Assembly (NCBI GenBank): GCA_019057375.1
Contig: DXJF01000056.1
Span: forward strand, 1 to 12,540
Length of the DNA stretch: 12,540 bases
Direction: 5' to 3'
Source of the DNA: Candidatus Heimdallarchaeota archaeon
GTDB lineage: Archaea; Asgardarchaeota; Heimdallarchaeia; Heimdallarchaeales; Heimdallarchaeaceae
Position numbers and translations under genes: made by a program. The notes beneath the pieces are model-generated. The model was not told where the DNA came from. It did not search any database and saw only the letters and a list, made by a program, of their open reading frames with translations. Numbering within the stretch: position 1 is the stretch's first letter; the number at the start of each line of letters is the position of its first letter. Shown here one piece after another: positions 10,007 through 12,540 of the stretch.

Positions 10007-10420
10007 ATGATTGATATGGATGACGAATGTCTCATTTGTAAGATTGTGAAAGGTGAATTACCAAGCTATACTCTCTATGAGGATGACGAGATTAAAGTAT
10101 TTCTAGATATATATCCCATGTCAAAAGGTCATAGTTTGTTCGTGCCAAAGAAACACCTCGAACAAATATTCGATTTATCAGAAACTGAAATGAATTTCAC
10201 AAAAAAAATACCTGAAATTGCAAGTAGATTAAAACAAATAACCGGAGCTACAGGTTTGAATATTATTCAGAACAATGGTAGAGATGCAGGACAAATACTT
10301 GATCACATACACTTCCACTTAGTACCTCGATTTCCTGAAGATGGTTTAAACTTGATTCCACCTAAAATAGAATTAACTGAAGAAACAGCAATAGAACTAG
10401 TTAAAATGTTTAATAATTAG
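10007..10420 (+). CDS. hit: HIT family (Hint-like) nucleotide hydrolase, Zn-binding type
   Basis: N-terminal CLICKI, GHSLFVPKKH, NNGRDAGQILDHIHFHLVPR (HxHxH). Confidence 0.95.
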   Translation: MIDMDDECLICKIVKGELPSYTLYEDDEIKVFLDIYPMSKGHSLFVPKKHLEQIFDLSETEMNFTKKIPEIASRLKQITGATGLNIIQNNGRDAGQILDHIHFHLVPRFPEDGLNLIPPKIELTEETAIELVKMFNN

Positions 10421-10489
10421 AAAAAACAAGCAAAGACAAGCACAAACTTAATAAAAAAATACGAAAAGAGAATTGACAAGGGGAAAATA

Positions 10490-11059
10490 ATGACAGAAGA
10501 CGAGGGGCAAGGAAAGAAGTATATCTTCAAAATAGTTCTACTAGGAGACCCAGGAGTAGGTAAAAGTTCTCTTATTACTAGATTTGTACACAACCGATTC
10601 CAAGCATCATATCTTATGACAATAGGAGTAGACATTCTAAGCAAACAATTATTTGTTGGAAATGATGAAGTGTTGTTTCTAATAAGTGATATTGGGGGAC
10701 AAGAACGATTTGCATCAGTTAGAGAAAAATTCTATCGAGGAGCAAGAGGATGTTTCTTAGTTTATGATCTCACAAGAAATAACACTCTAAATTCTTTGAA
10801 AGCATGGAAGAAAGGATTAGAGAGTGTGGAAGAAGATGCAATATACTTCCTTATAGGAAATAAAGCAGATTTAAAAGAACAAATTGCCGTTTCACAAGAA
10901 AATATTGATACCATTATTAAAGAATTAAATATACCAAAGGATTCTTTCTTTGTTACATCAGCAAAAACCGGTGAAAAAGTAGAAGATGCATTCAGAACCT
11001 TTGCGCAAGAACTAATGAAAGATGTAGAACGAAAAAGAGTAGAATTTGGGTTAGATTAA
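10490..11059 (+). CDS. Rab-like small GTPase (Ras superfamily; eukaryotic signature protein)
   Basis: G1 GDPGVGKS, G2 TIGVD, G3 DIGGQ, G4 NKAD, G5 SAK. RabF-like RFASVR, FYRGA, LVYDLT. No C-terminal Cys. Confidence 0.95.
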   Translation: MTEDEGQGKKYIFKIVLLGDPGVGKSSLITRFVHNRFQASYLMTIGVDILSKQLFVGNDEVLFLISDIGGQERFASVREKFYRGARGCFLVYDLTRNNTLNSLKAWKKGLESVEEDAIYFLIGNKADLKEQIAVSQENIDTIIKELNIPKDSFFVTSAKTGEKVEDAFRTFAQELMKDVERKRVEFGLD

Positions 11060-11171: not shown

Positions 11172-11280
11172 GGGGCAGTAGTTTAGCCTGGCCTATGATG
11201 GGGGACTGTCAAGTTCCTTGCAGTCTTGCATTGAATGCCGAACTCCTTCGACCCGGGTTCAAATCCCGGCTGCCTCGCCA
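11172..11280 (+). tRNA. trnD: tRNA-Asp(GTC) with 31-nt intron at 37/38 and encoded CCA
   Basis: Acceptor GGGGCAG/CTGCCTC, discriminator G73, CCA. Anticodon stem GGGGA/TCCTT, loop CT-GTC-A^C. 4-nt variable loop. T arm CCGGG-TTCAAAT-CCCGG. Mature length 78 nt. Confidence 0.92.
11212..11242 (+). other. tRNA intron with relaxed BHB motif
   Basis: Central helix CTGT/GCCG contains a U-C mismatch and a U-G wobble; bulges CA^A and AA^C; outer helix GTTC/GAAT; internal hairpin TGCA-GTCT-TGCA. Confidence 0.8.
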
Positions 11281-11294: not shown

Positions 11295-11334
11295 TTCGAT
11301 AGCTTTTTATTATTTCAATAATCAACTGTTCTTG

Positions 11335-11967
11335 ATGAAACGATATGCTCTATTATTCACGTTTGTTGTACCTCTGATAGTAGGGTTATCAATAGTTGGT
11401 ACTCCTGCTTCTGCAGATAAATATGTTGTAGAGGACGGGGACTTACTTGATTATGGCTACCAGCTGTATGTTGATGGAAATCCTGTTGAAACTCGTGATG
11501 AGGAAAATCCTGTTAAAATAGTTATCAGAACTACCAGCATTACTCCTCCTGGTCTATATCAACACCTTATCGGTATGAGAAACGGAGAAATAAAAGATTA
11601 CTTTGTCATCCAACCTGAGGAAGGTTTTGAAGACGGACCTTATGTTAGTCTAGCTTTAACTTATTATAATCTCCAGATTTACAAGATTAATGGCTATCAT
11701 TCTACTGAACTTCCAACTGAACCACCAACGAAAAGTTTTGGATATTGGGTTCTTGTGATAGGTGGAGGAATTTTAGGGACAGCAGGGGCAATATTCCTGA
11801 TTTATGGTGGTTATCGTTTTTATCCTAAGATTTTTGGTAAACGATGTATGACTTGCAAAAAAAGTGCTCTAGGTAACTGTAAGAACTGTGGACAAGCATT
11901 TTGCGATAACTGTTATTCCAGTGGTTGTCCAAATTGCAAAGGAAGATCTCTCATTAGATTCAAATGA
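11335..11967 (+). CDS. Type-I membrane protein: signal peptide, FKBP-like ectodomain, TM helix, cytoplasmic 8-Cys zinc finger (start corrected from 11218)
   Basis: MKRY+hydrophobic+ASA signal. FKBP-like VEDGDLLDYGYQLYVDG...PGLYQHLIGMRNGEIK...PEEGF...LTYYNLQIYKI. TM FGYWVLVIGGGILGTAGAIFLIYGGY. Tail C-x2-C-x7-C-x2-C-x4-C-x2-C-x4-C-x2-C. The track's TTG start lies inside the tRNA intron. Confidence 0.85.
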   Translation: MKRYALLFTFVVPLIVGLSIVGTPASADKYVVEDGDLLDYGYQLYVDGNPVETRDEENPVKIVIRTTSITPPGLYQHLIGMRNGEIKDYFVIQPEEGFEDGPYVSLALTYYNLQIYKINGYHSTELPTEPPTKSFGYWVLVIGGGILGTAGAIFLIYGGYRFYPKIFGKRCMTCKKSALGNCKNCGQAFCDNCYSSGCPNCKGRSLIRFK

Positions 11968-12019
11968 TTTGATGTGTCCCTTCGAAATTCTTTTAAGTTT
12001 TCTTACTCCTCTCTCCTTA

Positions 12020-12540
12020 ATGAGGCGTTGCTTCCATTATACACTATTACTTGTTGTTATATCGTCTTTAGTTCCTACTCAGTTTACAACAGTAGAAGCC
12101 TATGACCAGCTTTATGGGGTGGAGTATGATGATGTTGTTGATGTGGCTTTTATTAGCTGGATTAATGGAGTATTTTCTAATAATTATACTGCAGATGGTC
12201 CTTTCAGAATTGCTGTTAACCCAAGTGTAATAAATGTCCATTTTATTGATGAGCTTATTGGGATGATGGTAGGTGAAGTAAAACCCTATATTACCTGGAA
12301 TGATACAGTGGGGAATTTAATCGAATATTATGATACAACCATAGTAAAATTAGTGAAAGATTCTACTCCAGACTCATCACCAGCTTGGAGAATAATTCGT
12401 CCAATTCTTTTATCTATAATTGGGATAGGCATAGTCATTGGTAGTATTTATGCAGGAGTAAAAATTCGTCAACGTATAGGAATAAAAGGGTGCACTACTT
12501 GCAGTAATAAAGCATCCTCTAAATGCGCTAAATGTGGAAA
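12020..12540 (+). CDS. Tandem paralog of the preceding gene, truncated by window end (alternative ATG at 11972); absent from the ORF track
   Basis: Manual translation: MRRCFHYTLLLVVISSLVPTQFTTVEA | YDQLYGVEYDDVVDVAFISWINGVFSNNYTADGPFRIAVNPSVINVHFIDELIGMMVGEVKPYITWNDTVGNLIEYYDTTIVKL...PILLSIIGIGIVIGSIYAGVKIRQRIGIKGCTTCSNKASSKCAKCG. No stop before the window edge. Confidence 0.88.
   Translation, partial: MRRCFHYTLLLVVISSLVPTQFTTVEAYDQLYGVEYDDVVDVAFISWINGVFSNNYTADGPFRIAVNPSVINVHFIDELIGMMVGEVKPYITWNDTVGNLIEYYDTTIVKLVKDSTPDSSPAWRIIRPILLSIIGIGIVIGSIYAGVKIRQRIGIKGCTTCSNKASSKCAKCG

Follow-up and report, generated by a model that had tools for sequence, protein, structure and literature searches.

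A tandem pair of membrane-anchored FKBP-fold proteins with shared eight-cysteine tails in Heimdallarchaeia: candidate extracytoplasmic folding helpers

Among described proteins, human FKBP11 (PDB 9n9j/9ygy) is closest in layout to the products of the two tandem genes considered here, gene 1 (type A) and gene 2 (type B), which lie at the end of a 12,540-nucleotide stretch of Candidatus Heimdallarchaeota archaeon DNA (GenBank assembly GCA_019057375.1, contig DXJF01000056.1; hereafter the window). FKBP11 consists of a signal peptide, a non-cytoplasmic FKBP domain, a single transmembrane (TM) helix and a short basic cytoplasmic tail. At the Sec61 translocon, its basic C-terminal helix has been modelled next to uL22 and ribosomal RNA, and this helix is reported to matter for binding of the ribosome (PMC12804085). 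A and B have the same type-I layout: their FKBP domain is on the trans side of the membrane and their basic tail in the cytosol. FKBP11 also leads the Foldseek matches of gene 1, in an alignment of 151 columns that takes in the TM helix, and it aligns to a type-B model with a Z-score of 10.4. However, the FKBP11 tail is a basic helix, whereas A and B end in a putative zinc finger with eight cysteines, and the sequence likeness is weak (E 0.058); the resemblance is one of architecture only.

Other FKBPs share single features with the pair. The SlyD-type proteins (MjFKBP26, PDB 3pr9/3prb; T. thermophilus SlyD) include the best PDB profile match of A, have the same Leu and Phe at two pocket positions, and match its fold once the insert-in-flap (IF) domain of SlyD is removed. 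They are cytoplasmic and carry the IF chaperone domain, whereas A and B lack the IF domain and have a signal peptide, a TM helix and a cysteine-rich tail. FkpA and Mip, and functionally PrsA and PpiD, are helpers outside the cytoplasmic membrane, the role we propose for A and B, and the FkpA-type fold is recovered at Z 8.0. FkpA/Mip-type chaperones, in contrast, are soluble periplasmic dimers or are anchored N-terminally or by lipid. To our knowledge, no bacterial extracytoplasmic prolyl-isomerase chaperone has a C-terminal TM helix and a cytoplasmic zinc finger. Annotation pipelines already name some orthologs as FKBP-type isomerases; one ortholog of gene 1 is listed at NCBI as an FKBP-type peptidyl-prolyl cis-trans isomerase from a Heimdallarchaeota archaeon. 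The literature searched held no description of an outward FKBP domain joined through a TM helix to a cytoplasmic eight-cysteine finger, of its sharing with thioredoxin-type proteins, of the A/B split or of a restriction to Heimdallarchaeia, and no archaeal membrane-anchored FKBP was found there.

We propose, with a probability of about 0.6, that A and B are folding helpers which are anchored in the membrane, act outside the cytoplasm and have in common a strongly basic cytoplasmic module for docking or assembly. Each would comprise a Sec signal peptide, an outer FKBP-fold domain, a TM helix bearing a GxxxG packing motif, and a short tail that is highly basic and binds zinc. The family would descend from a single-copy, Heimdallarchaeia-only ancestor with a canonical FKBP prolyl-isomerase domain that was duplicated in the Heimdallarchaeaceae. 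A would be the likely isomerase or chaperone, and B, having lost pocket elements, probably a non-catalytic partner or holdase. The preliminary description of this DNA had instead suggested a receptor repertoire, in which a variable sensor is joined to a constant effector.

Gene 1 occupies positions 11335..11967 (+) and encodes 210 amino acids plus a stop codon; the product is read as an FKBP-like membrane protein of type I that ends in a zinc-finger tail. Gene 2 (12020..12540, +) is an open reading frame that is open at its 3′ end, with its first 173 codons and two further bases inside the window. As first described, gene 2 repeats the layout of gene 1: the coordinates, the quoted motifs and the cysteine spacing are all present, and the two products share 26% identity over 191 columns (BLASTP E 6e-8). 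Nineteen type-A and 21 type-B orthologs were collected from 19 relatives in the same genus. Full-length profiles of the two sets align with an hhalign probability of 100 and E 5.8e-41. The ectodomains alone, whose homology had been singled out for checking, give a probability of 96.8 across 79 columns (E 2.1e-10). They are therefore homologous rather than alike by chance, and the two genes are true paralogs. Identity between A and B is 43% in the tails and 29% in the ectodomains; the tails, first described as the conserved part, are indeed better kept, yet they are not constant. Gene 1 orthologs are 84–90% identical in the closest genomes and 41–66% identical across the genus.

The outer domain of gene 1 (11416..11736, +; residues 28–134) is recognizable as an FKBP from sequence profiles. 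Residues 32–100 match Pfam FKBP_C (PF00254) at 23.1 bits (E 9.7e-5; curated cut-off 21.1), as do 18 of the 19 type-A orthologs at E≤1. In profile searches of the PDB, MjFKBP26 is the best match (E 1.5e-4), and FKBP11 is also found, at the E-value given above. The gene 2 ectodomain (12101..12385, +; residues 28–122) is more degenerate: the window fragment has no Pfam FKBP match at E≤10, and 11 of the 21 type-B orthologs match FKBP_C at E≤1 (best E 3.5e-4). AlphaFold2 models were built on the ortholog alignments, with an ortholog rather than the window fragment standing for type B. The modelled ectodomains reach a predicted local distance difference test score of ∼90 in both types (residues 31–120 in A). 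The A model retrieves FKBP11 of the secretory translocon, FKBP13 and SlyD without its IF domain (SlyD delta-IF) as top Foldseek matches with a probability of 1.00, and its target-normalised TM-score against FKBP13 is 0.77. The B ortholog model aligns to FKBP13 by VIA-align with Z 11.3 and a root-mean-square deviation of 2.1 Å over 85 residues, and to SlyD with Z 10.7. Both modelled ectodomains thus have the FKBP fold, a five-stranded sheet around a short helix, without the IF domain of SlyD-type proteins. The only other FKBP found in the assembly is a cytoplasmic long-type protein without a signal peptide.

The two ectodomains differ in their pockets. Residues are given in FKBP12 numbering, with a canonical member of the wider family serving as an alignment bridge. 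Type A retains Tyr at Tyr26 and Gly at Gly58, and has Val or Ile at Phe36, Glu at Asp37, Thr, Asn or Ser at Ile56, Leu at Trp59, Phe at Tyr82 and Tyr or Phe at Phe99. Leu at Trp59 and Phe at Tyr82 are also found in MjFKBP26; positions 36 and 56 depart from a pocket of the SlyD/MjFKBP26 kind. Overall, type A appears to keep a SlyD/archaeal-type pocket, and it is plausibly an isomerase, or at least a peptide binder. Type B has Phe at Tyr26, variable residues at Phe36 and Asp37, Asn at Ile56, Asn or Ile at Gly58, Phe at Trp59 and Tyr at Phe99; the loop with Tyr82 is either missing or replaced. Because the Asp37 equivalent, Gly58 and the Tyr82 loop are lost, type B is probably a pseudo-isomerase.

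Several features indicate how the proteins sit in the membrane. The gene 1 signal peptide (11335..11415, +; residues 1–27) ends in ...PASA ahead of DKY; the A-x-A-like end is conserved in the orthologs, and cleavage is predicted after ...PASA. In the gene 1 model, a hydrophobic helix at residues 3–20 is followed by a low-confidence linker; the type-B model likewise starts with a hydrophobic helix. The TM helix (11737..11814, +; residues 135–160) is modelled from residue 135 to 167, the most hydrophobic 19-residue window begins at residue 138, and the segment carries GxxxG. In gene 2, the TM helix with GxxxG lies at 12386..12463 (+; residues 123–148); in the type-B ortholog model it spans residues 121–152, of which G137 and G141 are nearly invariant. 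GxxxG occurs in the TM segments of 17/19 type-A and 20/21 type-B proteins. The ectodomains are acidic, with a mean net charge of −9 to −10, and the ∼50 residues past the TM helix carry +10 to +13 (gene 1 tail, +10). The signal peptide, the acidic ectodomain and the strongly basic tail together fit an outward ectodomain and a cytoplasmic tail, and they bear out the extracellular placement of the variable domain first suggested; the reducing cytoplasm suits an eight-cysteine site. The placement had also been argued from N-glycosylation sequons. Gene 2 does have two N-x-S/T sequons, but no alignment column holds a sequon in ≥30% of the type-B orthologs and several orthologs have none at all. Sequons were therefore dropped as evidence for location.

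The cytoplasmic tails share the pattern C-x2-C-x7-C-x2-C-x4-C-x2-C-x4-C-x2-C. In gene 1 the basic tail (11815..11964, +; residues 161–210) runs from C171 to C201 in its cysteine-rich part and has a conserved R-x-L-I-R-F end; in gene 2 the finger begins at 12491..12540 (+) with C158-x2-C-x7-C-x2-C and is cut by the contig end. All eight cysteines and their 2-7-2-4-2-4-2 spacing are invariant in the A and B orthologs and in the two aligned tails of thioredoxin type described below, and an R-x-(L/F)-I-R-(F/L) end follows the eighth cysteine in all three. The distant tails attached to canonical FKBP domains vary this spacing. Most likely, the eight cysteines bind two zinc ions. Type-1 B-boxes are the nearest known modules, together with the ANCHR-like B-box and AN1: C-x2-C-x7-C-x2-C-x4-C-x2-C fits the first six B-box ligands. 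However, the A and B tails score 13.6–16.1 bits against B-box (PF00643) and ANCHR-like B-box (PF22586), below the curated cut-offs of 24.1 and 27, their last ligands are C-x2-C rather than His, and they are attached to a TM helix. Profile matches in the PDB are likewise weak (ZFYVE19, E 0.044; PML B-box1, E 0.13; FYVE fingers). The tail was also considered as a RING finger of an E3 ligase and rejected on both ligand pattern and profile: there is no His ligand, and zf-C3HC4 (RING) matches just one of the 19 type-A tails, at E 0.87. In the ESM Atlas the tail scored 0.76–0.78, below a useful level, and the wide VIA-align search returned a list filled by the FKBP domain that barely covered the tail.

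A profile of the TM helix and tail, searched against 1.84 billion representative proteins at E≤1e-3, matched only 51 clusters or proteins. Most are FKBP-like and ∼200–230 residues long, a few are of thioredoxin type, four are unrelated zinc-finger proteins and some are fragments; B-box- and AN1-like proteins are also picked up at E 1e-4 to 1e-5. The family falls into three groups. The first comprises A- or B-like proteins. The second consists of distant proteins of 190–230 residues with a canonical FKBP ectodomain (in P0045, FKBP_C at 74.5 bits and PDB FKBPs down to E 1e-14). Members of the third, of ∼270 residues, have a TlpA/Redoxin-like thioredoxin ectodomain with WCPPC (AhpC-TSA/Redoxin, E 3e-17 and 1e-21). 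Two of these thioredoxin-type siblings, at L028:2028-2840 (−) and L030:2817-3761 (+), show a signal peptide, the WCPPC domain, a TM helix and a B-type zinc-finger tail, and such siblings occur in many genomes of the genus. Their outer domain recalls TMX and TlpA/ResA. TlpA and ResA, however, are anchored N-terminally and TMX tails are not zinc fingers. The likeness to TMX of the endoplasmic reticulum (ER) is purely architectural and applies to these siblings, not to genes 1 and 2. One genome (G001) has an additional gene at L030:1340-1828 (+), encoding a B-type ectodomain and TM helix with a short basic end in place of the zinc finger, which lies ∼1 kb upstream of a thioredoxin-type gene.

The named family members belong to the Heimdallarchaeaceae, Kariarchaeaceae and Hodarchaeales, all of them Heimdallarchaeia; by the names of its close homologs, the organism itself falls in the Heimdallarchaeaceae. 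Among 400 genomes scanned across the phylum, the tail was present in 29 of the 30 from the family to which this genome belongs (f1). In three other families of the same order, it was found in the single genome of f2, in 11 of the 12 of f3 and in none of the three of f4. Another family of the same class (f5) had it in 6 of 22 genomes, and the remaining phylum gave weak matches only, mostly interrupted by stop codons.

Within this range, the A/B pair is stable. A maximum-likelihood tree sets A, B and the canonical group each apart by a branch of its own (supports 92/84, 100/99 and 100/99, respectively), and the A and B subtrees are congruent across the genus. The well-supported branches and the congruence indicate a single duplication, no later than the base of the family, after which the two copies were inherited together. 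Nearly every genome of the family has kept the pair, and tandem pairs also occur in other genera of the family; the duplication is old, as had been supposed. Most relatives have two copies and one subclade has three. In the three-gene arrays, the middle gene (L016:2193-2795, L017:842-1444, L022:848-1444) is a chimera of a B-type ectodomain (41–44% identity to B) and an A-type tail (69–80% identity to the A tail), which shows recombination or gene conversion between the paralogs. Crude Nei–Gojobori estimates on close orthologs give ratios of nonsynonymous to synonymous substitution (dN/dS) of 0.18–0.21 for the ectodomains and 0.15–0.19 for the tails. By these estimates, selection is purifying rather than diversifying in ectodomain and tail alike.

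Gene 2 could be completed from the same assembly. The window is the whole of contig C157; the assembly comprises 3.47 Mb at 89% completeness, and a search of it with the gene 1 tail matched the first 72 bases of a second contig, C22. These bases (L025:1-72) hold the final 22 codons and the stop codon of gene 2. C22 opens with ‘ggaaa’, a five-base overlap with the window end (12536-12540), and then reads ...GKHYCSNCSSKGCTNCGSRQFIRY-stop; its translation, K-H-Y-C-S-N-C-S-S-K-G-C-T-N-C-G-S-R-Q-F-I-R-Y-stop, supplies the two cysteine pairs absent from the window. Two things support the join, this overlap and the collinear nucleotide sequence of a relative. Full-length type-B orthologs of 196–201 residues are present in relatives. 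An independent Logan contig likewise ends at base 12540 and the reads did not span the gap; the break is probably a branch point caused by strain variation. Gene 2 is therefore intact, with all eight cysteines. A tRNA-Ser(CGA) lies at L025:106-188, 34 nucleotides past the gene 2 stop codon, in an arrangement identical to that of the closest relative. Because this tRNA gene comes directly after gene 2, the array does not continue past the window, as the preliminary description had thought it might, and in this genome it ends at two genes.

These observations favour folding helpers over a receptor repertoire, because the outer domain was originally that of a standard prolyl isomerase, because the sole other outer domain found on the tail is a thiol-disulfide oxidoreductase, because copy number is fixed and low, and because selection is purifying. 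Since the same TM helix and tail are also found on a TlpA-like oxidoreductase, the tail can be read as a common cytoplasmic docking or assembly module for surface folding factors and would not be a signalling effector. By analogy with FKBP11, our preferred guess is that it docks on the ribosome–Sec translocon or on acidic membrane lipids. An A/B hetero-oligomer is plausible in light of the conserved pairing, the pocket loss in B and the GxxxG motifs in both TM helices. Several points weigh against the proposal. Gene 1 passes the FKBP_C cut-off by a narrow margin (23.1 versus 21.1 bits). Given this narrow pass and the substitutions at the Phe36 and Ile56 equivalents, catalysis by type A is uncertain. 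The fold class of the tail is a lead, as all of its matches to known fingers are sub-threshold. The tail search found no thioredoxin-type sibling in this 89%-complete assembly. Finally, the analogy to FKBP11 is one of architecture and charge. A bolder version, in which type-I FKBP and thioredoxin-fold enzymes form a dedicated translocon-proximal module in Heimdallarchaeia, each held at the Sec exit by the common basic zinc-finger tail, which would grip the translating ribosome or SecYE-beta, is speculative and improbable.

The gene neighbourhood bears on a rival reading in which A and B are a receptor/transducer pair. Here, the FKBP-like ectodomains would sense a ligand or peptide, possibly as an A/B heterodimer, and a B-box/RING-like finger would signal, for example, to the adjacent Ras-family GTPase or an Asgard ubiquitin-like system. 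The architecture is indeed receptor-like, the tail resembles cross-brace fingers of the B-box type that mediate protein–protein contacts, and catalytic features have been lost in B, as is common in pseudo-enzymes that have turned into binding modules. Furthermore, the genes directly upstream (10007-11059, +) code for a protein of the HIT family and a small GTPase of the Ras family (147.7 bits to Pfam Ras), and the order HIT, GTPase, A, B recurs in most of the same-genus loci fetched. However, in 8/8 loci from other families there is no GTPase within 4 kb of the gene. The synteny is confined to one genus, and a general functional link to the GTPase was rejected. The near absence of RING matches among type-A tails, the canonical FKBP as the ancestral ectodomain and the redox enzyme on the same tail also speak against a transducer. 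Nor is there the expansion or diversifying selection of a repertoire: what had been taken for variable sensors on constant effectors are a fixed set of just two orthologous lineages (one subclade has three) with FKBP folds and dN/dS of ∼0.2, and the other ectodomain on the tail is a thioredoxin fold. We consider a receptor pair unlikely. The other-family loci share a different block of housekeeping genes, which gives no functional hint. In the sister family (L031-L038), the conserved block around the single-copy canonical FKBP-TM-zinc-finger gene contains, under putative names given by reading the sequence, a ∼150-residue protein, a ∼510-residue AAA+-like protein, a ParB-like protein and RNA polymerase subunit A′, among others.

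A second rival takes the tail not as a dock for the translation or translocation machinery but as a localisation or retention device, a basic zinc knuckle that binds acidic lipids, the cytoskeleton or the endosomal sorting complex required for transport (ESCRT) and so clusters surface foldases at certain places on the membrane, for instance protrusions or division sites. The net charge of +10 to +13 across ∼50 residues would suit such a role, as would the identity of the best matches, weak as they are (FYVE-associated ANCHR/ZFYVE19 and FYVE fingers), and the GxxxG motifs suggest oligomerisation. Against it, every zinc-finger match is sub-threshold, and the loci examined show no co-occurrence or neighbourhood link to ESCRT or cytoskeleton genes. 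Clustering of this kind seems doubtful to us, although it is no less probable than a receptor.

Immediately around the pair, the locus reads tRNA-Asp(GUC, intron), A, B, tRNA-Ser. The intron-containing tRNA at 11172-11277 (+) scores 38 bits against the Rfam tRNA model (cut-off 29), and its GUC (Asp) anticodon loop is followed by a 33-nucleotide insertion. ARAGORN missed this tRNA upstream of gene 1, whereas Rfam detected it. A long open reading frame from 11218 is spurious and is in part translated tRNA.

Each gene is preceded by a conserved promoter-like box. That of gene 1 (11295..11311, +) reads TTCGATAGCTTTTTATT and lies 24–40 nucleotides ahead of the start codon; that of gene 2 (11981..11996, +) reads TTCGAAATTCTTTTAA at 24–39 nucleotides. 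The type-A box is found at a constant distance in 18/18 aligned loci in which the flanking intergenic DNA is divergent, and the type-B box is near-identical upstream of 21/21 aligned type-B genes. Across the genus (window and L005-L023), the boxes lie 24–43 nucleotides before the ATG as TTCGATAGCTTTTTATT for A and TTCGAAATTCTTTTAAG for B, with the common form TTCGA-W-A...TTTT(T)A. The box is rare elsewhere in the genome: that of gene 2 has only two exact matches in the 3.47 Mb assembly, the second inside a coding region. As a genome-wide promoter consensus the box was rejected: two patterns matched 2 and 4 times, roughly as often as their control patterns. It is a candidate BRE/TATA-type promoter (BRE, transcription factor B recognition element) that was duplicated together with the gene, or else a dedicated regulatory site. 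If it is a duplicated promoter, the genes would give two separate, nearly leaderless transcripts. A third rival makes A and B anti-sigma/ATF6-like regulators tethered to the membrane: when the FKBP-like domain detects folding stress outside, regulated proteolysis would free the finger, which would bind nucleic acid or a transcription factor. This reading draws on the basic zinc finger and on the tightly conserved box before every copy, which could mean dedicated regulation. It is very unlikely, since neither a partner protease nor a cleavage motif was seen, just ∼40 residues of the tail are structured and the loci examined offer no neighbourhood support.

Protein folding after export has been little described in archaea. 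A tandem duplication by itself is ordinary; what this family adds is an FKBP outside the membrane in Heimdallarchaeia, the class that includes the Hodarchaeales, paired with a degenerate paralog. It also joins one cytoplasmic zinc-finger module, as the tail is most likely to be, to both a prolyl-isomerase-type protein and a thiol-disulfide oxidoreductase. Should the translocon-proximal module exist, archaea would have their own equivalent of ER factors such as FKBP11 and TMX, perhaps even a forerunner of these. Provided that the tail does dock on the ribosome or translocon, folding helpers of the A/B kind would offer a simple parallel to the accessory factors that work at the eukaryotic ER translocon. 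Otherwise, the tail would still represent a compact new membrane-proximal zinc module of very narrow phylogenetic range.

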